Assembly (NCBI GenBank): GCA_045611685.1
Contig: JAZKXO010000106.1
Span: forward strand, 13,833-77,832
Length of the DNA stretch: 64,000 nt
Direction of reading: 5' to 3'
DNA from: Eubacteriales bacterium
Lineage (GTDB): Bacteria; Bacillota; Clostridia; Oscillospirales; CAG-272
Both the position numbers and the translations under genes were made by a program. Numbering within the stretch: the stretch's first letter is position 1; each line of letters opens with the position of its first letter. Below are positions 3,173-35,979 of the stretch, piece by piece. Below the pieces are notes generated by a model that did not search any database, was not told the DNA's origin, and worked only from the letters and a program-made list of their open reading frames with translations.

Positions 3173-3460
3173 ATGTTAACAAGTAAACAAAGAGCGACGC
3201 TTCGCTCCATGGCGAACAACATGGATTCCATTATGCAGGTAGGGAAAAGCGGTATCGGCGAAGAGCTGATCACCTCCGTTGATAACGCACTTGAGGCGCG
3301 CGAGCTTATTAAAATGACCGTTCTTGAAACGGCACCGCTCACCGCACGCGATACGGCTGAAGAACTTGCCGCTGCTGTCGGTGCGGACGTTGTCGGCGTG
3401 GTCGGGCGCAAGATGATCCTTTTCCGTCCGTCAAAAAAGAAACCGAAGATTACGCTGTGA
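3173..3460 (+). CDS. yhbY: CRM-domain RNA-binding protein YhbY
   Basis: LTSKQRATLRSMA...QVGKSG...RELIK; located before nadD. Confidence 0.93.
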   Translation: MLTSKQRATLRSMANNMDSIMQVGKSGIGEELITSVDNALEARELIKMTVLETAPLTARDTAEELAAAVGADVVGVVGRKMILFRPSKKKPKITL

Positions 3461-4092
3461 TCTCCCAGGAGAGAAGCGGCAGACGCCGCATCGGCATATT
3501 CGGCGGCACATTTGATCCGCCGCATATGGGACATGTAAATGCCGCGCGCGCTTTTCTTGCTGAAATGCACCTTGACGCGCTTCTCGTTATGCCTGCCGCT
3601 ATCCCACCGCACAAATGCGGCGTGGCCGGTGCAGCATCCGAAGTTCGACTTCTGATGACACGTGCCGCGTTCGATGGTTTGGATCCCCAAATATCAGTTT
3701 CTGATTTTGAGGTCCGGTGCGCGGACGTGAGCTATACGTACAGAACGCTTCGGCATTTCAAAGAGACCGAGGACGCGGATATTTACTTTCTCACGGGTGC
3801 TGATAAGTTTGTTTCCATAGACAGCTGGAAATGTCCTGACATCATTTTTGATAGCGCTGTGATCGTCTGTGCCATGCGCGATGGGGATCCTGCGGTGTAC
3901 GAGGATGTTATTGCGAAGACACGGCTTTATAAGGAACGCTACGGCGCAAGAACGGAAATGTTAAAGGTTTCGCCCATAGAGATATCCTCCAGTGAAATCC
4001 GGCGAATATACTGCGAGGGTGGTGATCTTTCAGTGCTCATGCCGCCTGCTGTTCTCAAAATTATGGACACGCATCATTTATACAGGGAGTGA
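3457..4092 (+). CDS. nadD: Nicotinate-nucleotide adenylyltransferase
   Basis: GIFGGTFDPPHMGH, SYTYRTL, ISSSEIR motifs. Confidence 0.95.
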   Translation: MISQERSGRRRIGIFGGTFDPPHMGHVNAARAFLAEMHLDALLVMPAAIPPHKCGVAGAASEVRLLMTRAAFDGLDPQISVSDFEVRCADVSYTYRTLRHFKETEDADIYFLTGADKFVSIDSWKCPDIIFDSAVIVCAMRDGDPAVYEDVIAKTRLYKERYGARTEMLKVSPIEISSSEIRRIYCEGGDLSVLMPPAVLKIMDTHHLYRE

Positions 4093-6519: not shown

Positions 6520-8937
6520 ATGAAGTACGAATTTAGCAGAATCGACGAAAAATGGCAACAGAGATGGGAAAAAGAAGGTGCATTCAACGCCGAGGATTAT
6601 TCTACCAAACCGAAATTTTACGGCCTTGTTGAATTTCCATATCCGTCCGGATCCGGTATGCACGTCGGACACATCAAGGCGTATTCCGGCCTTGAAGTAG
6701 TTTCCCGCAAGAGAAGAAAGGAAGGATACAACGTCCTTTTCCCCATCGGATTTGATGCATACGGTCTGCCAACCGAGAACTCGGCAATCAAGTTCAACAC
6801 ACACCCTCGCATCTTGACGGATAGAAACATCGAGAAATTCACCTCTCAGCTCAAGCGTGTCGGCTTCTCCTTCGATTGGAACCGCGTAATTGATACGACG
6901 GATGAGAACTACTACAAATGGACACAGTGGATCTTCCGCAAAATGTTTGACGAGGGACTCGTGTTCCGCGCCAAAACGCTTGTAAACTATTGTCCGCACT
7001 GTAAGGTCGTCCTTTCAAACGAGGACTCCCAGGGCGGTAAGTGTGACATCTGCCACAACGACATCGTACAGAAGTCAAAGGACGTTTGGTATCTGCGGAT
7101 TACCCAGTATGCGGACAAGCTTCTCGAGGGTCTCGACCACGTCGATTATCTCCCGAACGTTCGACTCCAGCAGGAGAACTGGATCGGACGCTCCACCGGC
7201 GCTTTCGCCGACTTTGCTCTGGTAGATGCTGACGGGGTGTCTCTCGGCGAATCTCTCCGCATTTACACTACCCGCTGTGATACGATGTTCGGCGTAACGT
7301 TTATGGTTATCGCACCCGAACATCCCGTCCTTGAAAAGTATGCGGACAAACTGAAAAACACCGAAGCGCTTGACGCGTATAAGGTGGAGTGCTCGAAGAA
7401 AACAGAGTTCGAGCGTACTCAGCTCGTTAAGGATAAGACGGGCGTTTGCCTTGACGGCATCTATGCCGTAAACCCCGCAAACGGCAAACAGATCCCGATC
7501 TACATTTCCGACTACGTAATGATGGGTTACGGTACGGGTGCAATTATGGCGGTTCCGGCGCACGATGAGCGCGATTACGAGTTTGCCAAGAAATTCGGTA
7601 TTGACATTATCGAAGTTATCAAAGGCGGCGATATTGAAAAAGAAGCATACACCGGCGACGGTGAAATGGTGAACTCCGACTTTTTGAACGGTATCAAGAC
7701 GAAAGCCGAAGCAATTGAAACGATGCTCAAATACCTCGGCGAGAAGGGCATTGGCGAGAAGGGCGTTCAGTACAAGATGAAGGACTGGGCGTTCAACCGT
7801 CAGAGATACTGGGGTGAGCCGATTCCGATCGTACACTGTGAGCATTGCGGTGACGTTGGCGTTCCGTATGAGGAACTACCGCTGAAATTGCCCGTTCTTG
7901 AAAATTTCGCTCCCGGTGAAGGCGGAGAAAGCCCGCTTGCCAAGATCGAATCGTTCGTTAACTGCACTTGCCCGAAATGCGGCAAGCCTGCAAAGCGCGA
8001 AACGGATACGATGCCGCAGTGGGCAGGATCTTCCTGGTACTTCCTCCGTTACATTGATCCGGATAATGCCGAGAAGTTTGCCGATCCCGAGAAGCTGAAA
8101 TACTGGCTGCCGGTTGACTGGTACAACGGCGGTATGGAGCATGTCACCCGACACATGATCTACTCCCGCTTCTGGCACCACTTCCTCTACGATATTGGAA
8201 CGGTGCCTGTTAACGAGCCGTATGCGAAGCGTACGGCACAGGGACTGATTCTCGGCCCCGATGGAGAGAAGATGAGCAAATCCAAGGGCAACGTCGTGGA
8301 TCCTAACGACGTAATTGACGAATACGGCGCGGACGTTCTGCGTGTATACGTTCTCTTTATGGGCGAGTACGGATCCGCAGCTCCGTGGAATGACAGCTCC
8401 GTGCGCGGATGTAAGCGCTTCCTTGACCGTGTCGGCGCGCTGACTGATATTGCGTCCGGACGCGGAGTCACCCCTGAGCTCGAAACCGCCTTCCATAAGA
8501 CTGTCAAAAAGGTTTCAAGCGATATTGAAGAGATGAAGTACAATACCGCGATCGCGGCAATGATGACGCTCCTGAACGATATTTATGAGGTAGGCCGCAT
8601 CACGCTTGACGAACTGGAAACGTTCATCTCTATCCTGAATCCGTTTGCTCCGCATATCACCGAGGAGATTTGGGAGATCATCGGCGGCAAGGACCTTCTC
8701 AGCCTTAGAGCATGGCCCACGTACGACGAGGCAAAAACGCAGGATGCCACGATCGAAATCGCAGTACAGATCTCCGGCAAACTGAAAAATACGATTACGA
8801 TTGCAGCAGACGCTTCCAAAGAAGAGGCGATCGCCGCCGCAAAGGCAGATGAAAAGGTTGCGGCATCCCTCGAAGGGAAGAGCATCGTAAAAGAAATTTA
8901 TGTCCCCGGTAGAATCGTTAATATCGTTGCAAAATAA
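6520..8937 (+). CDS. leuS: Leucine--tRNA ligase
   Basis: FPYPSGSGMHVGH (HIGH), GAIMAVPAHDERD editing domain, KMSKSKGN. Confidence 0.98.
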   Translation: MKYEFSRIDEKWQQRWEKEGAFNAEDYSTKPKFYGLVEFPYPSGSGMHVGHIKAYSGLEVVSRKRRKEGYNVLFPIGFDAYGLPTENSAIKFNTHPRILTDRNIEKFTSQLKRVGFSFDWNRVIDTTDENYYKWTQWIFRKMFDEGLVFRAKTLVNYCPHCKVVLSNEDSQGGKCDICHNDIVQKSKDVWYLRITQYADKLLEGLDHVDYLPNVRLQQENWIGRSTGAFADFALVDADGVSLGESLRIYTTRCDTMFGVTFMVIAPEHPVLEKYADKLKNTEALDAYKVECSKKTEFERTQLVKDKTGVCLDGIYAVNPANGKQIPIYISDYVMMGYGTGAIMAVPAHDERDYEFAKKFGIDIIEVIKGGDIEKEAYTGDGEMVNSDFLNGIKTKAEAIETMLKYLGEKGIGEKGVQYKMKDWAFNRQRYWGEPIPIVHCEHCGDVGVPYEELPLKLPVLENFAPGEGGESPLAKIESFVNCTCPKCGKPAKRETDTMPQWAGSSWYFLRYIDPDNAEKFADPEKLKYWLPVDWYNGGMEHVTRHMIYSRFWHHFLYDIGTVPVNEPYAKRTAQGLILGPDGEKMSKSKGNVVDPNDVIDEYGADVLRVYVLFMGEYGSAAPWNDSSVRGCKRFLDRVGALTDIASGRGVTPELETAFHKTVKKVSSDIEEMKYNTAIAAMMTLLNDIYEVGRITLDELETFISILNPFAPHITEEIWEIIGGKDLLSLRAWPTYDEAKTQDATIEIAVQISGKLKNTITIAADASKEEAIAAAKADEKVAASLEGKSIVKEIYVPGRIVNIVAK

Positions 8938-24589: not shown

Positions 24590-24659
24590 AAATGAGCGTA
24601 TGCATCTTATTTCCATATTGGGAAAGAAAAAGAGGGTGAGTAAACACCCGCTCTTTGCA

Positions 24660-25571
24660 TTAATAACGGCTCTCAGTTTCGCGGATTTTTTCGTAGAGGT
24701 TACGGATAACAGGTTCGTCTGCCGCGCACAGGGGGATAAACGGCGCCCGTACGCTGCCGCACTCGATACCGAGGAGCCGCAAAACGCCCTTGGCTGCAGC
24801 ATAAAGGGAAGACGCTTTTTTCGTTTCGTAAATCAGTCCCGTGATCTCCTTTTGCAGAGATGCCGCTTTTTCCGTGTCACCCTTTGTGATGAGATCTTCG
24901 AGTTTCATAAATAGTTCGGGCATATATCCGTACGTACCGCCGATACCGCCCGAGGCGCCCATGAGGCGTCCTGCAAGGTACTGCTCATCCGGACCGTTGA
25001 AGATTGCGACGTCTTCGCCGCCGAACATGCGAAAACGCATAATATCCTGGACGGATCCTGACGAGTTCTTAACACCGGCAACGCGTCCCGTTTCGAGCAT
25101 TTTTAAAAACAGATCCGTCGGCAGATTGAAGCCGTTCGTCGTGCCGGGGATGTTGTAGATGAACATGGGAACGGCATCAGTTGCATGGAGCACATCCGTC
25201 CAGTATTTGTAAACGACCTTTTCGCTGAGTCCGTAATAAAATCCCGGCACCATGGCGATCGCATCGACACCGATTTTTTCGGCGTGCTGTGCTAAGGTAA
25301 TGCTGTCCCTTGTAGCCGGCGCCGCGATGTGGGCGATCACTGTCATCTTGTCGCCGACTGCTTCCATAACCGCTTCGAGCGTTGCCTTTCTTTCCTCTAT
25401 CGTGTGAAAGACGCATTCGCCTGAGCTACCCGTCACGTAAAGGCCCTTCATTCCGAGGGAATGATAAAACGACGCGAGCTTTGACGCGCGTTCGCGCGAA
25501 ATGTTTCCTTCCTCATCGTAGCAGGCGTAGAAAGCCGGAAATACGCCTCTGTATTTTTTCTGTACAGCCAT
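24660..25571 (-). CDS. nanA: N-acetylneuraminate lyase (DHDPS family)
   Basis: GVFPAFYACYD, GLYVTGSSGEC, FIYNIP, GVKNSS (Schiff-base Lys), NGPDEQ; lies in an operon with nanE and nanK. Confidence 0.85.
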   Translation of the reverse strand: MAVQKKYRGVFPAFYACYDEEGNISRERASKLASFYHSLGMKGLYVTGSSGECVFHTIEERKATLEAVMEAVGDKMTVIAHIAAPATRDSITLAQHAEKIGVDAIAMVPGFYYGLSEKVVYKYWTDVLHATDAVPMFIYNIPGTTNGFNLPTDLFLKMLETGRVAGVKNSSGSVQDIMRFRMFGGEDVAIFNGPDEQYLAGRLMGASGGIGGTYGYMPELFMKLEDLITKGDTEKAASLQKEITGLIYETKKASSLYAAAKGVLRLLGIECGSVRAPFIPLCAADEPVIRNLYEKIRETESRY

Positions 25572-25592
25572 AATAGTTCTCCTTTATGTAAG

Positions 25593-26708
25593 TTAAATAT
25601 TGATTATACTACCGTCAATCATCGTAAACCGAATGCGGTAGTCAGTGTCCATGCCGACGAGATCCGCTTTAAACGAGGGAGCGATGTCGCCGAGTGTTTT
25701 TTTTGAGATCCGTCTTGCGGGCGTGTTTGAGGTCATACAGAAAACGTCCCACGGATCGATGCCGATACTGATCAAAGCACGTGCACAGTCATCCATCAAA
25801 TACCGTCCACCGGTTAAGGTGCCGTTTTCAAGACGCGGACTGCCGTCTTTAACAATGCGGTCATCATATCGGCCATCCGGCATGCCCGTCAACGTCACAG
25901 CGTCCGTGATTACCGAAAGACGTCTCGGACCTACAGCCTTTACCAGCAAGCGGATAATCTCAGGAGCAAGATGCACAAGGTCGCAAACGATCTCCGAGAA
26001 CACGCCGTCATTGATGACAGCTTCAGTGAGAAGTCCCGGATCGCGATGGTTGATTGGGCGCGTTGCATTGAAGAAATGCGTAATGCCGTCGAGTCCAGCC
26101 TTTATCGCCGTGCGCATTTCTTCAGCTGTTGCGTTACTGTGACCTGCGTTCACGTGAACATTGTTTTCTTTTAAGTAACGTATTAATTCTAAAGCACCTT
26201 CAAGTTCCGGCGCGAGTGTGATCTGCTTTACTGCCGATGCGTGGTTACCCGTGAGTTTTTCGAAATGCTCCAAAGAGGGAAGCGTGATGTACTGCCCATT
26301 GATCCCACCTTTTTTTTCGAAATTAAGGAAAGGTCCCTCAAGATGAACACCGAGGACTCTCGCGCCGTTATCCACAGGGTTCTTCATTATTTCATCATAA
26401 AACGCAACCGCATCTCGGATCTTTTCGGGCGGCGAGGAACTGAGCGTCGGCAGGATGCCTGTAACGCCGTGTAAAGCCAATCTTTTGAGCCACTGTTCAT
26501 TCTCTTCTTTGTTAGGTGAAGCGGCGTTGTACCCAAGCGATCCGTGCGCGTGCAATTCAATCATTCCGGGGATGAGAATGGGCACGTCGTACGTATTCGC
26601 ATCTTCACTTGCGCTGATATGGTCAATGATTCCGTCTTCTATATAGACACGTGCGTTATGTAGCCAGCCGCTTGAAGTCCATACCTGTTTTGCATAAATT
26701 GAGTTCAT
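25593..26708 (-). CDS. nagA: N-acetylglucosamine-6-phosphate deacetylase
   Basis: PGMIELHAHG, GVHLEGPF, TLAPE, AGHSNA, THFFNA, ITDA motifs. Confidence 0.93.
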   Translation of the reverse strand: MNSIYAKQVWTSSGWLHNARVYIEDGIIDHISASEDANTYDVPILIPGMIELHAHGSLGYNAASPNKEENEQWLKRLALHGVTGILPTLSSSPPEKIRDAVAFYDEIMKNPVDNGARVLGVHLEGPFLNFEKKGGINGQYITLPSLEHFEKLTGNHASAVKQITLAPELEGALELIRYLKENNVHVNAGHSNATAEEMRTAIKAGLDGITHFFNATRPINHRDPGLLTEAVINDGVFSEIVCDLVHLAPEIIRLLVKAVGPRRLSVITDAVTLTGMPDGRYDDRIVKDGSPRLENGTLTGGRYLMDDCARALISIGIDPWDVFCMTSNTPARRISKKTLGDIAPSFKADLVGMDTDYRIRFTMIDGSIINI

Positions 26709-26732
26709 TTGAATTTTCCTTTGTACGGAAGA

Positions 26733-27419
26733 TTATTTGAGTGCCTTCACATAGCGCTGTGTGATTTTCAAAGGACGCGTGATCGCTGAGCCGACAACGC
26801 ACGCGTGCACGCCTTGATCCATCGCCGTGCGAAGTTCCTCGGGAGAGAAGATACCACCCTCGGCAATAACGGGCGTGTGGAGCGTTTCGGCGAGTTTATG
26901 CATAAAATCGAAATTCGGCGGCGGCAGATGGCGTGTATCATCCGTATAGCCGTTCAAAGTCGTGCCGATAAAATCAAACCCGAGTTCTTGGGCGCGCAGG
27001 GCATCCTCATAGGTGGCGCAATCGGCCATAAATAACTGTTCGGGATATTTTTTGCGGACTTCTTTGAAGAATTCGGTGACCGTACTGCCGTCGGGGCGGA
27101 TTCTTGATGTCGCGTCCGTGGCGATGATGGAAACGCCTACTTCCACGAGAGCGTCGATTTCTTTGAGAGTCGGGGTGATTCTGACTTTGCAGTTTTCGTA
27201 ATCCTGTTTTATGATACCGATGATTGGGAGAGGGACGGTCTTTTTGATTTCCCGTATGTCTTCAACGGAATTTGCACGGATGCCGACGGCACCGCCGAGA
27301 TAGGCGGCATACGCCATACGTCCCATAATAAAGCTGCTGTGAAGCGGCTCATCGGCGAGTGCCTGGCAAGATACGATAAGCCCGCCGCGCAGTTTCTCCA
27401 TAAGTTCTTGTTTCGTCAT
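26733..27419 (-). CDS. nanE: N-acetylmannosamine-6-phosphate 2-epimerase
   Basis: GLIVSCQAL, GAVGIRANS, PIIGIIKQDY, RITPT, GTTLNGYT, IAEG, VGSAITRP. Confidence 0.96.
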   Translation of the reverse strand: MTKQELMEKLRGGLIVSCQALADEPLHSSFIMGRMAYAAYLGGAVGIRANSVEDIREIKKTVPLPIIGIIKQDYENCKVRITPTLKEIDALVEVGVSIIATDATSRIRPDGSTVTEFFKEVRKKYPEQLFMADCATYEDALRAQELGFDFIGTTLNGYTDDTRHLPPPNFDFMHKLAETLHTPVIAEGGIFSPEELRTAMDQGVHACVVGSAITRPLKITQRYVKALK

Positions 27420-27438
27420 TTTTGTCTCCTTTTATTGC

Positions 27439-28329
27439 TTAGCTTTCATTAAGCCGTTGTTTTGCGTATACGGCGGCACCAATCATGCCTGCCTTGTTTC
27501 CAAGTTCAGCTGCAAGAATATCTACGTCCGCAAAGGTGGGGATAACTCTTTTTAAAAAACGTTTTTTGATATCGGCAAGAAGAACTTCCTCCTGCATAAC
27601 ACCGCCCCCCAAAATGATCGCGCACGGGTTAAATATGTACGTGAGGGTCAGGAGTCCTTCTGTGATTTCGTCTTCCCAAGCGGTGATGACGCGGCGAAGT
27701 CTCAGATCCTTTTCTGCCTCATTGAAAATTTCTTTTGCGTTTTCGAGTTCGGGACGGAGTTTTCTTGCGCTATCCAGGAGCGCCGTTGTAGATGCATACT
27801 GTTCGTAGCATCCGCGGTGTCCGCATCCGCAGAGACGGCCGCCTTTATGCGTTACCATGTGTCCCATTTCCCCCGCGATTCCTTTTGTGCCTGTGAACAG
27901 CCTTCCGTTTTGAATAATGGCACCGCCAACGCCTGTCCCGTAAGTGAGACAGAGAAAATCCTTATGTGCACGACCGGCACCCAAATGTGCTTCACCTAAG
28001 GCGGCGGCATTCGCATCGTTAAGGATAAAAGCGGGGCGGCCGAGCGCTTTTTCCAATATTTCGCCGGCAGGGTAAGCCTGTGCGTCCTCGCCGGCGGCTT
28101 TATTATATCGGAAAAGCATAGTTTTTGCTTTGTCGTCAATCTGCCCGCGCATCGAGGCACTGAGAACATCGAAGTCGCCGTATTCGCCCGCAATATGGAT
28201 GACTTTCTCCATGCGGACTTCAACGTTCTTATCAGATGATGTTGTGCGAACGTCCGACAACTTGCCCGTGTCATCAATGATAGCTGACTTGATTGCCGTA
28301 CCTCCCACGTCCATTACAAGAATTCTCAT
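27439..28329 (-). CDS. nanK: ROK-family sugar kinase (ManNAc kinase)
   Basis: MDVGGTAIK, NDANAAALGE, TYGTGVGG, GEMGH, CGCGHRGCYE; nan operon context. Confidence 0.8.
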   Translation of the reverse strand: MRILVMDVGGTAIKSAIIDDTGKLSDVRTTSSDKNVEVRMEKVIHIAGEYGDFDVLSASMRGQIDDKAKTMLFRYNKAAGEDAQAYPAGEILEKALGRPAFILNDANAAALGEAHLGAGRAHKDFLCLTYGTGVGGAIIQNGRLFTGTKGIAGEMGHMVTHKGGRLCGCGHRGCYEQYASTTALLDSARKLRPELENAKEIFNEAEKDLRLRRVITAWEDEITEGLLTLTYIFNPCAIILGGGVMQEEVLLADIKKRFLKRVIPTFADVDILAAELGNKAGMIGAAVYAKQRLNES

Positions 28330-28469
28330 ATATAATCCTCCTTCTTATACACAATTATAACATAAATTTTTCCACATAAGTTTGAGTATTTTGCCATGTT
28401 TTTTATTGTGGTTGCTTTTTTGCAAAAATGTGATATAATAAGGATCAAGCAATGAAAAGAGGGACAGAT

Positions 28470-29279
28470 ATGCGAATCATACATCATGAAAGAGGGCGCG
28501 ACCCGCTTTATAACATTTGGAATTCTTCTGAGGAATGCATGATCATTTATTTTTACTCCGACGGCGGTAACGTAGTCTTTCAAAATAAGATATATCCGAT
28601 AAAAAGGGGTGGACTTTGCTTCATCCGTGCGGGGGAACAGCACTACACACTCCCTGATAAGCCGGAAATATATGACAGAAGCAAAATATTTGTTTCCGAA
28701 AAGAAACTCAACGATATGCTGAATCTTGCATACGGAGATGATGTATTGAACAGCTTGTTTCGGAGTAATTCAGTAATTTATGCGCAAATACCGGAAAGTG
28801 ATCGGTCGGATGTGGAAAAAATATACGAGAAGGCACTTGATGCGTTGGGTGACAAAATTGACGAGACAGTTTTTACATGCTGTTTCTTTCAGTTACTTAT
28901 TTACTTGAGGGATTATTCGTCAGGCCGCATCACAAACAGAAGCGATTCTTTGACAAGGACGATTGATTTTATAAACCGTAGTTATGCTTCTCCCATCACT
29001 CTTGATGATGTCAGCGCCGGAGTGCATATGAGTAAGTACTATTTATGCCGTCGCTTTAAAGAAGCGCTCGGTGTGACGATCATGGAATATCTCCTTAAAA
29101 CCCGAATCGCGGCTGCAAAAAATCTCCTTGCATCTGATCGCATATCTATCAGCGAGATTGCGGAAAAATGCGGTTTTTCAAGCACATCTTACTTTAGCCA
29201 GATCTTTAAAAAATCCACCGGCTTAACGCCGATTCGATACAGAAACCGCTTGGGTGAAAACGAAAACTCCCGACCTTAA
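28470..29279 (+). CDS. AraC-family transcriptional regulator, divergent from the nan operon
   Basis: C-terminal double HTH: ITLDDVS..MSKYYLCRRFK..ISEIAEKCGFSSTSYFSQIFKKSTGLTP. Confidence 0.93.
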   Translation: MRIIHHERGRDPLYNIWNSSEECMIIYFYSDGGNVVFQNKIYPIKRGGLCFIRAGEQHYTLPDKPEIYDRSKIFVSEKKLNDMLNLAYGDDVLNSLFRSNSVIYAQIPESDRSDVEKIYEKALDALGDKIDETVFTCCFFQLLIYLRDYSSGRITNRSDSLTRTIDFINRSYASPITLDDVSAGVHMSKYYLCRRFKEALGVTIMEYLLKTRIAAAKNLLASDRISISEIAEKCGFSSTSYFSQIFKKSTGLTPIRYRNRLGENENSRP

Positions 29280-29292
29280 TTCGGGAGTTTTT
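29262..29292. terminator. Bidirectional terminator shared by araC and the duplicated spoIVB 3' end
   Basis: AAAACTCCCGA-ccttaat-TCGGGAGTTTTT. Confidence 0.75.
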
Positions 29293-29306
29293 GTAATGAG
29301 TGATAA

Positions 29307-29429
29307 TCATCCCGCCGCAGCGAGCATGTTTTCGATATAAATACCGTATCCCTTCGAGGGATCGGAAACCAGAACGTGCGTTACCGCACCGATAAGCTTT
29401 CCGTCCTGAATGATGGGACTGCCGGACAC
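29307..29429 (-). pseudogene. Duplicated 3' fragment of spoIVB (last 40 codons plus stop)
   Basis: Translates to [40 protein letters not shown]. It has 10 mismatches in 123 bp against 30760-30882, an in-frame stop 4 codons upstream and no RBS. Confidence 0.93.
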
Positions 29430-29578
29430 GTTCGATGTTCATTAGGGACAACACACTTTCTACCAAAACTAAAGTATCGCTTCAGTATGAGTATGAATCT
29501 GCTGTGTGGAAAACACATGAAAATGTGGTATAATAGAATCACAAAAGCGCTTTTGAATATAATTTGGAGGTAGATACA

Positions 29579-30712
29579 ATGTCTATTGGATCAACTATCA
29601 AAAAACTCCGCCGTGAACGCGACATGACCCAGGAACAGCTGGCGGAATATCTCGGTATTACCGCCAATGCTGTGTCACAATGGGAATGTGACAGGACGGC
29701 GCCCGATATTTCGCAGCTTCCAATTCTTGCTGGATTATTTTCTACTACAATCGATACACTTCTCGAATATGATTGCGACGCACAAAAAGAAGATATAGAA
29801 AATTTTTTCCGACTGATTCGTGAAGAACTGCCCAATGATGATATGGAATCGCGAATCCGATTGGGAAAAGAATACACATCGAAATACCCCAAAAATTATG
29901 ATATTGCCCATGAAATGTGTTGGATAATCAATTGGTCAGACAAAGAACAGAGACAGGAAAACCTCCCACTCCTCCGTTCGCTTTGTGAAAAGATCATATC
30001 AGAATGTACCGTTCAAACTTACCGTGAATCTGCAGTCAAATTGATGTGTACTCTTGGAAACGACGATGACTGGGAAAAGTGGTCAAAGATGTGTGCGCAT
30101 GACTACAAGACTTATCGGGGTGAGATACTTGAGAACAGATTGCTTGAACAGGAAAAGTATGATGAGTGCATCTTGAGAAAAGGTGTAAATAAGCTTGAGT
30201 ATTTTTGCCATCTGATGCAGTCAAACTGTGGGAATTGGCACGATCCAATCAAGTCCATAGCCTGGATAGATTTTCGCATTGAACTGATGTATTCATTCGG
30301 TGAAAACGGAATTATCCCATCGGCATGGCAGGGATTTTATGCAATCATGCTTACTTATAAAGCAGATCAGCTTTTCCGTCTCGAAAGAAAAGAAGAGGGC
30401 TACGCTTGCTTAGAAGATGCTTATCGTAATTTTGCAGAATGGACAACCATTCCGGACGGAAGTCCGCTTGATGTAGGACACGATTGGATATTCCACGGTG
30501 TGAAAGCTCTGAAAAATGAATGGAACTATCGCCTTGCAAACGGAAAAGAGGAATATTCCAATTATATGTACGCCTTTGCTGATCAGTGTGACTATCTGGA
30601 GAAAGTTATGAAAATGCAGATGAATTGGGATGGTTTCGTACGTGTCAGAAATGAAGAAAGATACCAAAAGGTTTTACTAAAAGCAGAATCACTAGTAAAT
30701 GAATCGAAGTGA
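29579..30712 (+). CDS. XRE-family HTH regulator with a large uncharacterised helical C-terminal domain
   Basis: IGSTIKKLRRERDMTQEQLAEYLGITANAVSQWECDRTAPDI; GGAGG RBS; TGgTATAAT extended -10 at 29526-29534. Confidence 0.9.
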   Translation: MSIGSTIKKLRRERDMTQEQLAEYLGITANAVSQWECDRTAPDISQLPILAGLFSTTIDTLLEYDCDAQKEDIENFFRLIREELPNDDMESRIRLGKEYTSKYPKNYDIAHEMCWIINWSDKEQRQENLPLLRSLCEKIISECTVQTYRESAVKLMCTLGNDDDWEKWSKMCAHDYKTYRGEILENRLLEQEKYDECILRKGVNKLEYFCHLMQSNCGNWHDPIKSIAWIDFRIELMYSFGENGIIPSAWQGFYAIMLTYKADQLFRLERKEEGYACLEDAYRNFAEWTTIPDGSPLDVGHDWIFHGVKALKNEWNYRLANGKEEYSNYMYAFADQCDYLEKVMKMQMNWDGFVRVRNEERYQKVLLKAESLVNESK

Positions 30713-30726
30713 TTTACAATACCCAA

Positions 30727-30757
30727 AAAAAGCCGAGGCTCACCACCCCGGCTTTCG
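30727..30757. terminator. Bidirectional terminator between the cassette gene and spoIVB
   Basis: AAAAGCCGAGG-ctcacca-CCCCGGCTTTC hairpin flanked by A and T tracts. Confidence 0.65.
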
Positions 30758-30759
30758 TT

Positions 30760-31944
30760 TTACCCCGCCGCTTCAAGCATGTTTTCGATATAGATTCCGT
30801 ATCCCTTCGAGGGATCGGAAACCAGAACATGCGTTACCGCACCGATAAGCTTTCCGTCCTGAATGATGGGACTGCCCGACATCCCCTGTACGATCCCGCC
30901 CGTTTTTTCTATCAGCGCGGGATCGGTAACCGTGATTTCCATACATTTATTATCGGATGCGTTTCGGATTTTCTTTATAGTAACCTCATACGCGCATACA
31001 CCGGACTCATCCAGCGTACAGTAGAGTTTGGCGGCACCATCTTTGATTTCGTTTTTGAGCGCAATGGGAATTGCGGTATCAGCGGATACACTTTTTGGGA
31101 ATTCAGTTATGAAGCCGTAAACGCCGGCTGAGGTGTTGCCCAGAAGCGTTCCGATTTTACCCGAGGAAAAATAGCCTTGCAGTTCGCCCGGGACCCCCGC
31201 CGTTCCTCGACGGACGCCGGTTATGCTTACGTTTGCGATCATTCCGCGGGAGAGAGGGAGGAGCGCCCCTGTCTCCGTATCGCAGATTCCGTGCCCCAGT
31301 CCGGCAAACGAACCGGTTTTTGGATCAACAAAGGTAACAGTTCCGATACCCGCCGTGTTGTCTTTCACCCACATGCCGGTTTTATAAGTCTGCTCCGAGA
31401 CGGAGAGAGAGGGAAGTACGGTGCAGTGCATTTCTGCATCGTTTCTTCTGACTGTGAAATCTAAAGGGGAGCCGTCGCTTTTTTCTAAGATTTCGGATAA
31501 CTGAGCCGCTGAGGTAAGATCTGTTTCATCAATTTTTAAAATTACGTCATGCATTCGTATGCCGGCGTCATATGCAGGCTGTCTCGAGCCGGATTCACAA
31601 TCCACTTCCGAGAAGCCAACTACGATAAGACCGTCCGTGAACATTTTTGCCCCAAACGCCATTCCGCCGGGACAGAGTTTTATATCATCAAAGCGTTGTA
31701 CGTTTACAGATTTAACGGGAAGAAAGCCCAAAAATTTGGCGGAATGAGATATGCGTTCATTTGTGGAGGCAGCAAGCGCTTGTGAGCAGGGCTCAATTTC
31801 CAGGAGGCTGGTTGCAGGTAATGCATCCCATTTGCGAATGGATATGGTGTCTTCTATCAGATAGTCCGCTGTACCGAGGAGCATTATCATTATTAAAAGC
31901 CACGATAGCGCCGCCTTGAGCGGATGAATTAATTTTGTTTTCAT
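30760..31944 (-). CDS. spoIVB: SpoIVB peptidase (PDZ plus S55 domain)
   Basis: PGGMAFG, GLIVVG PDZ domain, [56 protein letters not shown] before ATG 31944. Confidence 0.96.
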   Translation of the reverse strand: MKTKLIHPLKAALSWLLIMIMLLGTADYLIEDTISIRKWDALPATSLLEIEPCSQALAASTNERISHSAKFLGFLPVKSVNVQRFDDIKLCPGGMAFGAKMFTDGLIVVGFSEVDCESGSRQPAYDAGIRMHDVILKIDETDLTSAAQLSEILEKSDGSPLDFTVRRNDAEMHCTVLPSLSVSEQTYKTGMWVKDNTAGIGTVTFVDPKTGSFAGLGHGICDTETGALLPLSRGMIANVSITGVRRGTAGVPGELQGYFSSGKIGTLLGNTSAGVYGFITEFPKSVSADTAIPIALKNEIKDGAAKLYCTLDESGVCAYEVTIKKIRNASDNKCMEITVTDPALIEKTGGIVQGMSGSPIIQDGKLIGAVTHVLVSDPSKGYGIYIENMLEAAG

Positions 31945-31987
31945 TCTGTACATCCTTTGGTGTGTTTTCGATAATTTCGCTGCCTTT

Positions 31988-32015
31988 AATGTATGCTGAA
32001 ACAGGCGGAATATGA
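31988..32015 (-). promoter_or_regulatory. SigE-like promoter candidate upstream of spoIVB
   Basis: Minus strand TCATATT-13 bp-CATACATT. Confidence 0.45.
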
Positions 32016-32117
32016 GTAACAATATTGCTTCATCTTGTCTATTCTTTCCTTGACGTATCGTTTATATTAAAAATATCAGAAAAAATGATAAATTTGAGTA
32101 AAATCAGAAAATAAGGT

Positions 32118-32146
32118 TTGAAATACAGGCAGAAATGTGGTACAAT
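32118..32146 (+). promoter_or_regulatory. Sigma-A promoter for cdaA
   Basis: TTGAAA-17 bp-TACAAT with extended TG. Confidence 0.65.
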
Positions 32147-32181
32147 AAATTATGAATACGCTCATACGGAGGATTTCTGTT

Positions 32182-33099
32182 GTGCCAAATTGGTTGACCG
32201 ACTTTTTCGAAAGTTTTTCAAGAAACATCAAAATCTCTTTTGTTGATATCATAGACATTATCTGTGTTACATTCTTACTCTATTATGTCTATCGATTTAT
32301 ACGCGACAGACGGGCCGGAAAACTGGCACTGGGTGTTGCTTTTGTCTTTCTCTTTTTGATTTTGAGCGATTTTCTTGAAATGCATGCACTGCAATATATT
32401 CTCAAAAATGTCTTTCAAGTTGGTCTTATCACTTTCGTAATTCTGTTTCAGCCGGAATTCCGCTCTGCCCTTGAAAAAATGGGCGGTGAATCTCTCCGTG
32501 GATTCAGAAGCATATCCGAGCAGAAAAGCGCAGCATCCGCTAAGGTGTTGATTGATGCTGTAACGTCCGCTGTAACCGATATGTCCGCCAAGCGTACCGG
32601 CGCTTTGATCGTGTTTGAGGGGACAACGAAGCTCGGTGATCTTATACTTACCGGAACTGTCATCAACGCAGACCCCTCCTCTTTCCTTATTAAAAACATA
32701 TTTTTTGATAAATCACCGCTTCACGACGGTGCTGTTATTGTGCGCGACGGAAGGTTGTATGCTGCCGGGTGTCTTTTGCCGCTGTCGGCAAAGTCCGATA
32801 TTACGCAAGATCTTGGCACACGACACAGAGCCGCAATCGGTATGAGCGAAAACAGCGACGCCTTGGTTGTCGTTGTGTCCGAGGAAACCGGTATAATCTC
32901 CGTTGCGCGAGAGGGAGTCTTAAAGCGCGGTTTCAAGACACAGTCCTTGCATAAGGAACTCAAAGCATTCCTTATCCCTGAGACCGAATCTCAGGTTGGA
33001 AAGGCTGTCAGCCGTCTGAAACGCGTAACACGCATCAGGAAAATGTCTGCGAATGCGCCAGAAATAACTAATCCAAAGGAGGATTCTCATGAAGCGTGA
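32182..33099 (+). CDS. cdaA: Diadenylate cyclase CdaA
   Basis: Three N-terminal TM helices, FQPEFRSALE, SPLHDGAVI, GTRHRAAIGMSE. GGAGG RBS 9 nt before GTG 32182. Confidence 0.96.
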   Translation: MPNWLTDFFESFSRNIKISFVDIIDIICVTFLLYYVYRFIRDRRAGKLALGVAFVFLFLILSDFLEMHALQYILKNVFQVGLITFVILFQPEFRSALEKMGGESLRGFRSISEQKSAASAKVLIDAVTSAVTDMSAKRTGALIVFEGTTKLGDLILTGTVINADPSSFLIKNIFFDKSPLHDGAVIVRDGRLYAAGCLLPLSAKSDITQDLGTRHRAAIGMSENSDALVVVVSEETGIISVAREGVLKRGFKTQSLHKELKAFLIPETESQVGKAVSRLKRVTRIRKMSANAPEITNPKEDSHEA

Positions 33100-34357
33100 A
33101 AACAATACGGCGACCGTCCTTGACGCCGATTCCGAGGTAACACGCCGCTCCTCCGGAGACTGGCTTGCCAAAATCACTTGCTTTTTAATTGCGTTTGTTA
33201 TCTGGTTTTACGTTATGCAGGTCGATAGTCCCGAGCATACGGAAACCTTCCATTCCGTGGATGTTTCTCTCTCGAATGTTTCTGTGCTTGAAGGCGAGCG
33301 CGGTCTTTCGGTTTACAGTGGATACGGCATTACGGTAGATATTACTGTCATTGGTCAAAAGAGCGTGATCGGAAAGCTTTCCGGCGACGATTTTACAGTT
33401 ACAGCGGACTTGTCCGGCATATCTGAGCCGGGGTTTCACTCCGTTGCGATCGATGTTGATCTTCCTTCAGGTCTCACCCTTGATTCCGTTTCTCAGAATT
33501 ACATTCAGGTTTATGTGGATGAAAGGTCGACGGTTGTAACCGAGATTCGTGCGAAACTTACTTCGTTTACGATGGAAAGCCAGCTGGAAATGGGGGAGCT
33601 TGAGCCCGAGTACGACACTGTCGTAGTAACCGGTCCGAAATCGGCGCTCGACGAGATTGCCTATGCCGAGGTCAAACTTTCCCTTGGCAGCATTAATGCA
33701 TCAATGACGGCCACCGGGCAGTTGACCCTCATCGATAAAACGGGCGCTTTGATCAACAACCCGTATCTTCGTCTTGCGCGAACTGAAGTGCGCGTTGATA
33801 TCCCCGTCTATGCCACGAAGCAGCTTGTGCTTACAGCCAACAGTAAATACGGATATTTCAACGATAAAAACGTAAAGATAACAATAGAGCCCGCCTCGCT
33901 CTTGTTCCGTGGTGATCCTGCGGTTCTTAGCGGGATGGATGAAATTGTAATAACAACGCTTGATGAGAAGAGCATTCTCGGCAACGTTACGAGACAGGTA
34001 CAACTTGAATTACCGCCGCGTGTAGAAGTCGTTAACGGAACGACTATGGCATCCGTTAAGGTCGAGCACGTGAACACGTACACTAAAAACTTCACGGTCA
34101 CCGATATTGACGTCACCGGTGCCGTCGGGCTGGATTATGATATAATGACAACCGTTCTGATGGTGCAGGTTCGCGGCACGATAGAGGAACTTGCCAAACT
34201 GAAAACCTCTGACTTTACGGCTGTCGTTGATCTGAGCGGATACACGAGCGATGCTACGGGTGTGATTACCAAAAATGCCATTATTCATATTGATTCCGCA
34301 TATGCCAGTGGAGTTTACGAAATCGGTGAATATTCCGTACAGGTGAGATTAAATTGA
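33089..34357 (+). CDS. cdaR: CdaR/YbbR-like regulator
   Basis: KITCFLIAFVIWFYV TM helix, repeated YbbR-like beta domains (DLSGI, VTGPKS); overlaps the cdaA end. Confidence 0.85.
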   Translation: MKRENNTATVLDADSEVTRRSSGDWLAKITCFLIAFVIWFYVMQVDSPEHTETFHSVDVSLSNVSVLEGERGLSVYSGYGITVDITVIGQKSVIGKLSGDDFTVTADLSGISEPGFHSVAIDVDLPSGLTLDSVSQNYIQVYVDERSTVVTEIRAKLTSFTMESQLEMGELEPEYDTVVVTGPKSALDEIAYAEVKLSLGSINASMTATGQLTLIDKTGALINNPYLRLARTEVRVDIPVYATKQLVLTANSKYGYFNDKNVKITIEPASLLFRGDPAVLSGMDEIVITTLDEKSILGNVTRQVQLELPPRVEVVNGTTMASVKVEHVNTYTKNFTVTDIDVTGAVGLDYDIMTTVLMVQVRGTIEELAKLKTSDFTAVVDLSGYTSDATGVITKNAIIHIDSAYASGVYEIGEYSVQVRLN

Positions 34358-35979
34358 GCGACATAATTACTCGAAACGTGCGACACTTACTGATTGAAAA
34401 TATTCGTGTACCCGTTTCGGATTCTGACGAAGCGGTGTTTCAAAAGGCGCGCCGCATTCTCGAAAAAACCGGTGCATTTGGTGAGCCGATTCGTATGGGA
34501 ATGCACAAAAAGTCCATTGATGCCCGCAAAAAGGACGCTATTACGTTTGTTTGCTCCGTGTACGCTGAGGCGGAATCCCTAAAGACATTAAGTGATGATA
34601 AGCTGAAAAAGTTTTCTGTAAAGCTTAGCGACTGCGAGTCGATTTCTTTACCTCTGGGCGAAGAGATCATGCACGGCCGCCCCGTTATCATCGGATTTGG
34701 GCCTGCCGGAATGTTTTCTGCGCTTCTTTTGGCTGAATGTGGCTTCAAGCCGCTCGTTTTGGAGCGAGGTGCTCCCGTAGATGAGCGAGTTCCTATCGTT
34801 GATCACTTTTCATCCGGCGGGATGCTTGATACGGAAACGAATATTCAGTTCGGTGCCGGCGGTGCAGGTACGTTTTCGGATGGGAAACTGACAACGCGTA
34901 TCAGCGATCCTCGGTGCGGCTACGTCATGGAACAGCTTGTCCGCTTCGGCGCACCGGAAGATATTTTGTGGCGCGCGAAGCCTCATATTGGCACGGATAT
35001 TCTCAGAGAGGTCGTACGCTGTGCCGACGCACGAATCAGGGCTCTGGGCGGCGAGATCCGCTATCACGCCCGTGCTGCGCGTATTGCGGGCGATCATTTG
35101 TACGTTGGTGCGGAACGGATTTCGTTCGGCGCGCTGATAATTGCCTCAGGCCACAGTTCACGCGATCTGTACGCCGAGCTGATTGCAAACGGATTTTCTG
35201 TTAATGCTAAACCCTTTTCTGTCGGTGTCCGGATTGAGCATCTCCAAGAGGAGCTTGATTACGCTATGTACGGCAACTTTGCCGGCAAATACGGACTTGT
35301 CCACGCGGATTACGCTCTGTCCTATCGGATGGGTGATCGGGGTGTTTATTCGTTTTGTATGTGCCCCGGCGGACAGGTTGTTGCGGCGGCATCGGAAATC
35401 AGTAGTGTCGTTACCAATGGTATGAGTCATTACGCCCGTGATGGCAAAAACGCGAATGCAGCGCTGGCGGTATCTGTCCATCCCGCTGATTACGGCGCAA
35501 CTCCTATGGAAGCGATTGCGTTCCAGCGCGATCTCGAACGCAAAGCATTTGAAAAGGGCGGCAAAACGTACGCAGCCCCCTGCCAGACTGTCGGCGATTT
35601 TCTCAACGGAAATCGCGGAACACTGCCCACGAAGATTCAGCCTTCTTATCGCGGCGGTGATGTCGTGATGACGGATTTCAGAGAAATCTTCCCGCCGTTT
35701 GTTACGTCTATGCTTGAGGCGGGTCTTCATGATTTCGGACGAAAAATCCGCGGATTTTCGGATGCCTCCGTCCCGCTCACAGGTGTTGAGACGAGAACCT
35801 CTTCACCTGTACGCATCCTTCGAGATGACGCGTCGTATCTTGCTCCTGGGTTTGACCGCATTTATCCGTGCGGTGAGGGGGCGGGATACGCAGGCGGTAT
35901 TGTAAGTGCTGCGGTTGATGGAATCCGTGTAGCAGAGGCTATACTGGCTCGTTACAAAAAGACAGATGAGACTGAGTAG
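34354..35979 (+). CDS. Uncharacterised FAD-dependent oxidoreductase
   Basis: IIGFGPAG Rossmann motif, GAGGAGTFSDGKL, FCMCPGG, GVETRTSSPVRI, GEGAGYAGGIVSAAVDG. Confidence 0.9.
   Translation: MSDIITRNVRHLLIENIRVPVSDSDEAVFQKARRILEKTGAFGEPIRMGMHKKSIDARKKDAITFVCSVYAEAESLKTLSDDKLKKFSVKLSDCESISLPLGEEIMHGRPVIIGFGPAGMFSALLLAECGFKPLVLERGAPVDERVPIVDHFSSGGMLDTETNIQFGAGGAGTFSDGKLTTRISDPRCGYVMEQLVRFGAPEDILWRAKPHIGTDILREVVRCADARIRALGGEIRYHARAARIAGDHLYVGAERISFGALIIASGHSSRDLYAELIANGFSVNAKPFSVGVRIEHLQEELDYAMYGNFAGKYGLVHADYALSYRMGDRGVYSFCMCPGGQVVAAASEISSVVTNGMSHYARDGKNANAALAVSVHPADYGATPMEAIAFQRDLERKAFEKGGKTYAAPCQTVGDFLNGNRGTLPTKIQPSYRGGDVVMTDFREIFPPFVTSMLEAGLHDFGRKIRGFSDASVPLTGVETRTSSPVRILRDDASYLAPGFDRIYPCGEGAGYAGGIVSAAVDGIRVAEAILARYKKTDETE

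Follow-up and report, generated by a model that had tools for sequence, protein, structure and literature searches.

Organization of the spoIVB locus

The stretch of DNA analyzed here (64,000 nt of contig JAZKXO010000106.1 from an Eubacteriales bacterium, hereafter "the window") contains an intact copy of the sporulation gene spoIVB together with a second, displaced copy of its 3' end. The two copies of this tail enclose a single gene for an XRE-family helix-turn-helix (HTH) protein on the opposite strand, and an araC-family gene convergent on spoIVB lies beyond the displaced copy (Table 1). The start codon of spoIVB is uncertain and may be the ATG at 31947 or an upstream TTG at 32022. A repeat search recovered the tail copies (29311–29428 and 30764–30881) as the sole long direct-repeat family, with 94% identity and a spacing of 1453 bp. 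Aligned over 123 nt, the copies share 113 identities and have 10 differences (92% identical), located at tail positions 1, 6, 54, 87, 90, 108, 110, 111, 120, and 122. The likeness extends from the stop codon up to an ATG or GTG codon and breaks off at the Met of the catalytic motif GMSGS. The differences comprise ATG to GTG, six synonymous changes, a two-base change of GAA to GCT (Glu to Ala), and TAA or TGA as the stop codon, and exact runs of 47 nt (tail positions 7–53) and 32 nt (55–86) remain between the copies. In each of these respects the alignment agrees with an earlier reading made from the letters of the window alone (hereafter, the sequence-only reading), which had described 123-bp direct repeats 1453 bp apart that end abruptly at the catalytic motif. 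The source genome harbors exactly two copies of the tail, both within a 163-kb contig and separated by unique DNA.

The closest relative in the genome set (G009, with a SpoIVB 86% identical; G, C, and L numbers refer to genomes, contigs, and loci of this analysis) lacks the cassette and is collinear with the whole window at 77–95% identity. In G009, spoIVB is directly convergent on araC and both flanks of the window insertion are contiguous, which is the empty site that the sequence-only reading would have a close relative display. The window sequence from 24644 to 29428 is 95.4% identical to G009 right up to the repeat boundary, and the sequence from 30764 to 35959 resumes from the same G009 tail at 79.7% identity. 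Over the 120 nt following the stop codon, the distal copy matches the G009 flank at 109 of 120 positions, compared to 32 of 120 for the gene-attached copy. Because the G009 flank continues from the distal copy, the distal copy is the ancestral tail, whereas the proximal tail, its TAA stop codon, the terminator, and the XRE gene are imported. The earlier idea of a donor tail is thus upheld: the ancestral flank runs on from the distal tail, and a different stop codon and terminator are found at the proximal tail. At the level of sequence, this comparison shows that a 1,453-bp segment was inserted at the TG of the GMSGS Met codon and that the two repeat copies mark its junctions. The change in identity to G009, from 95.4% on the side of araC and the sialic acid genes to 79.7% on the spoIVB–cdaA side, coincides exactly with the attachment site; values of 77–92% are found in the rest of the window.

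Table 1. Positions of the spoIVB insertion, its junctions and cargo, and the neighboring genes within the window.
Feature	Position	Strand	Evidence
Intact spoIVB (signaling protease, PDZ and S55 domains)	30760–31947	-	Pfam Peptidase_S55 (2.8e-80) and PDZ; NCBIfam TIGR02860 (368 bits, cutoff 305)
Gene-attached (proximal) tail, last 40 codons and TAA; attL-type junction (B arm, TG, tail)	30760–30882	-	Alignment
Inferred crossover dinucleotide TG, bases 2–3 of the GMSGS Met codon	30880–30881	-	Invariance; dyad center of the palindromic attP
Displaced distal tail, 40 codons and TGA, first codon now GTG; attR-type junction (P arm, TG, native tail)	29307–29429	-	Alignment with G009
Distal-copy counterpart of the inferred crossover TG	29427–29428	-	Alignment
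P arm, element-side half-site, GTGTTGTCCCTAATGAACATCGAAC then GTG on the spoIVB strand	29430–29454	-	Family consensus from 166 fragments
Cargo gene, XRE-family HTH protein, 377 aa (alternative TTG start at 29564)	29579–30712	+	Pfam HTH_3 (2.6e-11)
Promoter-like site of the XRE gene, TGGAAA-16-TATAAT with TG extension (extended -10)	29507–29534	+	10 of 12 consensus matches
Hairpin with T/A runs between the XRE stop (30712) and the spoIVB stop (30760)	30727–30757	.	Read directly in the sequence
araC-family regulator, native convergent neighbor of spoIVB, outside the insertion	28452–29279	+	Pfam HTH_AraC/HTH_18; collinear with G009
DHDPS/NanA-like gene	24660–25571		
NagA-like gene	25593–26708		
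NanE-like gene	26733–27419		
ROK kinase gene	27439–28329		Pfam

Conservation of the junction across gut Clostridia

SpoIVB was searched against 40 relatives and then against 401 genomes of the order. Tail-only matches were found in several of the 40 relatives, and all begin at the same residue, with VSGSP in place of MSGSP. In the order, 359 of the 401 genomes have a tail match and approximately 40 carry extra tail fragments, up to ~9 per genome, as counted after the removal of paralogous full genes. The displaced tails in relatives number 52, all with the same boundary. A first nucleotide pattern, based on the element-side arm that adjoins the displaced tails (P arm), was too narrow and matched 17 of these 52 known junctions. 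It was replaced by a tail pattern independent of the P arm (a non-A base before TG, followed by the tail), which matched 42 of the 52 junctions and none of 40 genes. A scan of 185,579 species genomes with the tail pattern yielded at least 120 loci; among the matches listed, 136 in total, six are real genes (with Leu or Val at that position) and ~130 are fragments. Taken together, the displaced tails of the relatives and of the matches listed amount to ~166 unique sequences from more than 100 gut Clostridia genomes, and all start at the same nucleotide. Their hosts include Oscillospiraceae, Acutalibacteraceae, Faecousia, Vescimonas, Ruminococcus, and Lachnospiraceae metagenome-assembled genomes (MAGs) from human and ruminant guts.

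At the boundary, genes read …CAR GGN followed by ATG, and fragments read the arm followed by GTG (in some cases CTG or TTG). The TG is the same in all 166 fragments and 44 genes, and both the preceding base and the following serine codon (TCN or AGY) vary in the two groups. The arm that precedes all fragments is ~25 nt long, with the consensus aAAAatnTGTTGTCCCTaAtTtgAcACACTC then GTG over 166 unique sequences, or in short form TGTTGTCCC…TGACA…CTC, then GTG. The P-arm site of the window is unique in the source genome, and its 24–25 nt also adjoin displaced tails in G007 (L060), L218, L272, and L325. A nucleotide-exact junction, a shared P arm, and stacked cassettes in many genomes thus support the proposal that the spoIVB 3' end serves as a dedicated attachment site with a crossover conserved across genomes. 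No raised synonymous-site conservation was found near the crossover, where third-codon positions show no more conservation than elsewhere in the tail. The right half-site is therefore defined by bases that the protein sequence holds fixed, and the catalytic motif accordingly makes a durable docking site that is conserved across families.

Other element families may have attachment sites of their own in the spoIVB tail. Some shorter displaced tails form a second class, which begins near the T-H-V codons and has its own conserved arm, …GGCATCATCnnTACAC then CATGT… (L055 at 6085, L056 at 6977, L061 at 774, L088 at 3519, 4899, and 6284, L092 at 119, L093 at 465 and 7085, L151 at 4267, and L195 at 4109), and a third class starts at G-K-L (L056 and L244). 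One displaced tail (L085 at 14106, on G421:C88) keeps ~21 nt of the gene-side arm (ACCGGCGGCATTGTGCAGGGC then ATG) without a P arm, and represents a differently bounded duplication within an array.

Large serine recombinases linked to the site

A 594-aa large serine recombinase (LSR) with Resolvase, Recombinase, and zinc ribbon domains starts 58 nt after the spoIVB stop codon in G037 and opens an 11.2-kb unit that ends in a P arm and tail. Its best NCBIfam match is CcrB, although the score (94 bits) is far below the cutoff of 900 bits. The congener G371 has the same array without the LSR unit, and its gene-attached tail and terminator sit behind the P arm in G037. As judged from the assembled sequences, G371 and G037 form a natural before/after pair for the gene-proximal insertion of a tail-carrying LSR element.

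A scan of IMG/VR with the P-arm pattern returned five contigs (L119–L123), each with a tandem LSR triplet whose end directly precedes the P arm. One of these contigs (L120) is a composite in which the triplet element is followed by a tail and then by a further, G037-like LSR. The triplet ends 70–170 nt before the arm in these contigs (L269 included) and in five of the 120 genome loci listed. The related units that bear an LSR are those of G037, L152, L156, L161, L259, L263, and L119–L123, and an LSR element family that uses the spoIVB site is widespread in gut Oscillospirales and Lachnospirales. The 31.8-kb IMG/VR contig of L122 (L269, L324, and L270) carries a triplet island with a small sigma-like protein encoded beside the recombinases, together with an HD/dGTPase-like protein, DUF6744, a MoxR-VWA pair, and a large helicase. 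Despite the listing in IMG/VR, such content suggests a defense-gene island rather than an obvious phage.

In four MAGs (G422–G425; loci L152, L156, L161, and L259), spoIVB is split at …GGIVQG-ATG, which is followed by TGAGTGATATATAATAGGGACAACAC. The split genes (L264–L267, on G424:C96, G423:C10, G425:C99, and G422:C53) are the sole spoIVB copies and end in …GGIVQG-M-stop, and their tails are located on another contig behind the triplet (attR in L161, L156, L259, and L152). The triplet elements carry no replacement tail. The sequence that follows the split (P' arm) matches the P arm in reverse complement, so that triplet elements have an attP in the form of an imperfect palindrome of ~50 bp; when rebuilt from attL (L264–L267) and attR, this attP has the same TG as its dyad center. 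A palindromic attP centered on the crossover dinucleotide is the classical layout of large serine integrases. In addition, the boundary identity of 2 nt fits a 2-nt staggered serine cut and not the 6–8-bp overlap of a tyrosine recombinase. In the window, the P arm is present on one side only, and the other half-site is the spoIVB tail.

The sequence-only reading had expected a tyrosine or serine recombinase to co-occur with the junctions, and this was borne out for the large serine type in related elements but not for the tyrosine type. A hidden Markov model built from 19 tyrosine recombinases of the source genome gave a single match, 6 kb from a junction, in six-frame open reading frames (ORFs) of ~180 loci. 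No recombinase family recurs among the 99 ORFs of complete cassettes. A search for PF07508 in 47 multi-tail genomes found an LSR adjacent to the junction only in G037 and G310:C20. Tandem LSR triplets elsewhere in multi-tail genomes are not followed by a P arm and thus use other target sites, and the P' arm had no match in G426, where a triplet element lies distal to an intact gene.

Cassette content

Following the direction of spoIVB, the 1,453-bp cassette consists of the replacement tail, the terminator, the XRE gene on the opposite strand, and the 25-nt P arm. As the sequence-only reading had it, the XRE gene is the only ORF found between the copies. It has a promoter-like site and a hairpin shared with spoIVB; no LSR gene is present inside the unit. 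Only the N-terminal ~70 aa of the XRE protein have matches in NCBIfam and PDB, and the C-terminal domain of ~300 aa has no family match in Pfam, NCBIfam, or PDB. Several XRE paralogues have weak TPR matches among precomputed families, which suggests, by sequence resemblance, RRNPP-like peptide-sensing regulators. This cargo family of ~370-aa HTH proteins is greatly expanded; the genomes of congeners yield as many as 48 matches each, and the source genome yields 12. Protein look-ups returned no record that matches the exact AraC and XRE sequences.

The hairpin between the XRE and spoIVB stop codons is likely a bidirectional terminator that was imported with the tail. The proximal terminator, AAAGCCGRGGYGGTGAGCCTCGGCTTTTT, is the hairpin that is also found 3' of cassette tails in the congeners G007 and G008, and a consensus terminator scan left it unflagged. 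A TTGACA in the P arm was considered as an outward promoter and rejected, as 19 nt separate it from a -10-like ATTAT and there is a terminator beyond the tail. A 32-nt direct repeat with 72% identity (…AAATGTGGTAYAATA) occurs upstream of the XRE gene (29504–29535) and upstream of cdaA (32116–32147). Both copies resemble extended -10 promoters, and the similarity is therefore probably due to promoter consensus and not to homology.

A scan of metagenomes with the XRE protein found one close orthologue away from spoIVB and one paralogue beside a P arm. The window unit recurs in the ENA contig L325 at 85.8% nucleotide identity over 1,574 nt, with an XRE protein that is 92% identical and the same P arm. 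There, the window-type unit is the second in an array, with an extra unit proximal to it. Orthologues of the XRE protein (80–81%) also lie beside spoIVB in contigs with other upstream neighbors (a B12-binding gene; rplU-prp-rpmA).

Cassette arrays and transfer between species

Thirty-eight complete units of 0.7–11.2 kb (median ~3 kb) were delimited, and with arrays of up to ~9 tails in many genomes (including G037, G021, and G334) they confirm that other cargo lies between spoIVB tails, as the sequence-only reading had foreseen. The 99 ORFs in complete units mostly encode regulators (seven AraC, seven XRE, three DeoR, and two LysR). Other cargo includes FAD oxidoreductases, iron-containing alcohol dehydrogenase (Fe-ADH), glycyl-radical enzymes with activases, aminotransferases, and surface proteins. 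The cargo genes are intact, each with a promoter and terminator of its own, and a terminator hairpin is found 3' of nearly every tail. Distal tails are often degenerate, with stop codons, deletions, and truncations, which fits older units having been pushed outward.

The congeners G037 and G371 share a tail–DeoR–FeADH–P/tail block that is 95.4% identical over 3.3 kb and starts 6 nt after the TG, and their spoIVB bodies are only 65–71% identical. Likewise, G421 and G231 share a 5.9-kb unit at 97.4% identity, and their genes are 78% identical. Judging from these identities, recombinase-less blocks are transferred between species. The cargo often resembles native spoIVB neighbors; DeoR and Fe-ADH, for example, are found both as a cassette and as the native flank in G037, G371, and G007.

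Six arrays contain complete palindromic attP-like sites (P arm and P' arm) with centers of GTAC, GTG, GTTTG, GGTAGG, or CTA (L060 at 53–105, L153 at 1509–1558, L181 at ~1664, L200 at 7465–7515, L218 at ~3644, and L225 at 3451–3500). These palindromes may be joints that arose from recombination between an element and an existing P-arm/tail site.

Origin of the insertion

The window repeat probably represents the junctions of a site-specifically inserted, recombinase-less cassette at the attachment site of the LSR element family. We infer that an LSR made the insertion and that this enzyme was encoded outside the unit. The favored route is that the cassette would arrive with, or be helped by, an autonomous LSR element that has since been lost. 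For example, a composite might integrate by attP x attB, after which the autonomous part would excise at the nearer attR. The window unit may still be excisable as a 1453-bp circle, and in the source genome it is probably fixed or immobile, as a cognate LSR is missing there. RecA-type recombination between the 92%-identical tails could also delete the cassette and restore the native …LAAAG end.

Several observations weigh against this interpretation. Only ~3% of the P-arm junctions listed adjoin an LSR, and several multi-tail genomes lack any PF07508 match, so that it is the common architecture of the att sites, and not co-occurrence, that ties the recombinase-less units to LSRs. The source genome has three distant LSR-like ORFs (22–32% identity), none of them near spoIVB, and no cognate LSR. 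Furthermore, the right half-site of the tail-carrying units is the spoIVB tail (B'-like) and not the palindromic P'. In the canonical LSR model, a P/B' site is an attR, which does not recombine with attB without a directionality factor. The best of the LSR-like ORFs in the source genome (G000:C79:71046-72488; 32% identity to a triplet member) has an in-frame TGA and would be a pseudogene, a recoded gene, or the product of an assembly error.

The palindromes in arrays and the native-like cargo would fit canonical routes, namely the joint excision of a triplet element and a neighboring unit or, at low odds, an attL x attR reaction in trans by which a split gene would be repaired. RecA-type exchange of tails is a further route that is compatible with the tail mosaic relative to G009 and with the identity step at the site. 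On this basis we tentatively consider a broader possibility, in which the catalytic-motif site of spoIVB is a platform for cassette exchange by serine recombinases. Autonomous triple-recombinase islands that split spoIVB, a germ-line gene, would have to leave and re-enter, and cargo units, each consisting of a former host's tail and downstream genes with a P-arm cap, would be carried between species by co-excision or by attL x attR recombination in trans that repairs the gene, with the palindromic joints as a by-product.

A cassette like that of the window could in principle be the remnant of a full LSR element of 11–30 kb, in which internal deletions left the tail, the XRE gene, and the P arm; the 1.45-kb cassette would then never have moved as such. 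Autonomous elements that share these ends do exist, the source genome retains no cognate recombinase, and the comparison with G009 spans species-level divergence (80–95% identity), which gives time for decay. We nevertheless consider this origin unlikely. The 151 listed P-arm junctions with at least 600 nt of upstream sequence include five intact LSR triplets and no LSR fragments (E ≤ 0.05), and this lack of a decay trail speaks against slow decay of LSR elements as the source. Deletion of a triplet element could not yield a tail-first cassette, because triplet elements carry no replacement tail. Moreover, the tail–XRE–P-arm unit recurs as a discrete unit in L325, and cargo genes are generally intact with their own promoters and terminators.

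Units of tail, cargo, and P arm might instead move and stack by RecA-type (Campbell) recombination between the 120-bp tails, or by homologous replacement together with flanking DNA, such that no site-specific enzyme would be needed at the locus. The tails are 75–95% identical across genera, and those of the window are mosaic relative to G009, with three sites that agree with one copy and four with the other. The tails of the block shared by G371 and G037 (~83%) are more diverged than its cargo (95%), as expected under tail reshuffling, and the identity to G009 drops exactly at the site. Such homology-driven spread leaves unexplained why every unit ends in an intact P arm that abuts the tail at the same nucleotide, as well as the origin of the first cargo-to-P-arm joint, and the left edge of shared blocks lies no more than 6 nt from the TG. 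As the main cause of the insertion, it is therefore rather improbable.

Finally, a local event or artefact (a tandem gene-end duplication with a later insertion, the template and variable repeats of a diversity-generating retroelement, or an assembly error) is very hard to maintain: a 3'-terminal repeat with point differences does superficially resemble such a repeat pair or a duplication of the e14-icd type, but the sister species G009 has the empty site and unrelated genomes share the foreign P arm; the unit has no reverse transcriptase, and the differences are not specific to adenine, which occupies one of the 10 differing positions in one copy and five in the other; and an assembly artefact or chance repeat is excluded by the 10 differing sites, the long contig with unique DNA between the copies, and the same layout in relatives.

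Comparison with known systems

Staphylococcal cassette chromosome (SCC/SCCmec) and pseudo-SCC islands occupy the 3' end of rlmH (orfX) in staphylococci and are moved by the large serine recombinases CcrAB or CcrC. These islands are the closest functional analogue of the spoIVB units. In both systems, a serine-recombinase site is located in the 3' end of a conserved gene and codons supplied by the element keep the ORF intact. Both also have gene-proximal entry of new units, as in G037, which corresponds to a G371-type array with a gene-proximal LSR element, as well as many recombinase-less units and more than one recombinase paralogue. In contrast to SCC, the target is spoIVB, the hosts are anaerobic gut spore-formers, the linked recombinases are only distantly related to Ccr, and sister elements with a palindromic attP split the gene. 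Since the spoIVB site lies 120 bp from the stop codon, a tail of 40 codons is duplicated, compared to ~15 bp in SCC.

For the prophage e14 in E. coli icd, cis-mobilizable elements (CIMEs), and the tandem accretion of ICESt1/3 at fda, the attP restores the 3' end of the gene and integrase-less derivatives occur. Similarly, a duplicated gene end with mostly synonymous divergence brackets the spoIVB element, and att-flanked units without integration genes form tandem rows. Like a CIME, the window unit has attL- and attR-type sites of an autonomous family on both sides and lacks recombination genes. However, e14 and CIMEs rely on tyrosine integrases with long identical cores, whereas the spoIVB elements have ~2 nt of identity and LSRs. 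The sequence-only reading had also envisaged an integron-like array. The row layout holds, with small cargo-only units that end in a recombination site and are added beside a fixed platform. The resemblance does not extend to the machinery, as there is no IntI or other tyrosine integrase, no attC-type hairpin site, and no common promoter, and the units bring their own regulators and terminators.

In B. subtilis, spoIVB is expressed in the forespore, i.e., the germ line. Elements that interrupt sporulation genes include skin in sigK, SPbeta in spsM, and gin in gerE (PMC4191935; PMC5499854; PMC5595907), and the triplet elements of G422–G425 interrupt spoIVB likewise, as LSR elements inside a sporulation gene. 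Unlike these intervening elements, which are known from mother-cell genes, the window unit leaves spoIVB uninterrupted. None of the three papers mentions spoIVB. The gene-disrupting spoIVB elements also resemble streptococcal integrative and conjugative elements (ICEs) with serine-integrase triplets, which insert site-specifically into their target genes, disrupt these, and leave repeats of 2–8 bp (Ambroset et al., 2016; PMC4701971), in that three tandem LSR genes of the same orientation are found at one end. The streptococcal elements differ in targeting mutT, traG, and hsdM, and tail-carrying recombinase-less arrays are not described there (Ambroset et al., 2016).

No published description of spoIVB as a docking or attachment site was found in the literature on serine recombinases, attB, integrases, and intervening elements, or in the LSR atlas. 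The locus marks a hot spot for the horizontal acquisition of genes by abundant Clostridia of the gut and rumen, with displaced tails in approximately one in nine genomes of the order. The genes imported there encode regulators, metabolic enzymes (glycyl-radical enzymes among them), and surface proteins. Both the site and its 25-nt arm are easily searchable, and annotation pipelines could use them to map islands. They would also add a defined attB/attP pair with natural variants to the large-serine-integrase toolbox, and they raise a mechanistic question for serine-integrase directionality, namely how a site with a B'-like right half is inserted. With the gene-splitting sister elements, a forespore-expressed sporulation gene would for the first time be seen to harbor intervening elements, and the problem that they pose for the germ line becomes testable. 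For the window alone the effect is modest: an additional regulator of the XRE family is gained, and the C-terminus of SpoIVB changes from …LAAAG to …LEAAG. The window instance is a simple one, but its empty-site comparator is unusually clean.

Neighboring genes

The native region downstream of spoIVB (24660–29279) resembles a cluster for sialic acid and amino sugar utilization with an AraC regulator. Among these assignments, those of the ROK kinase and AraC are backed by Pfam.

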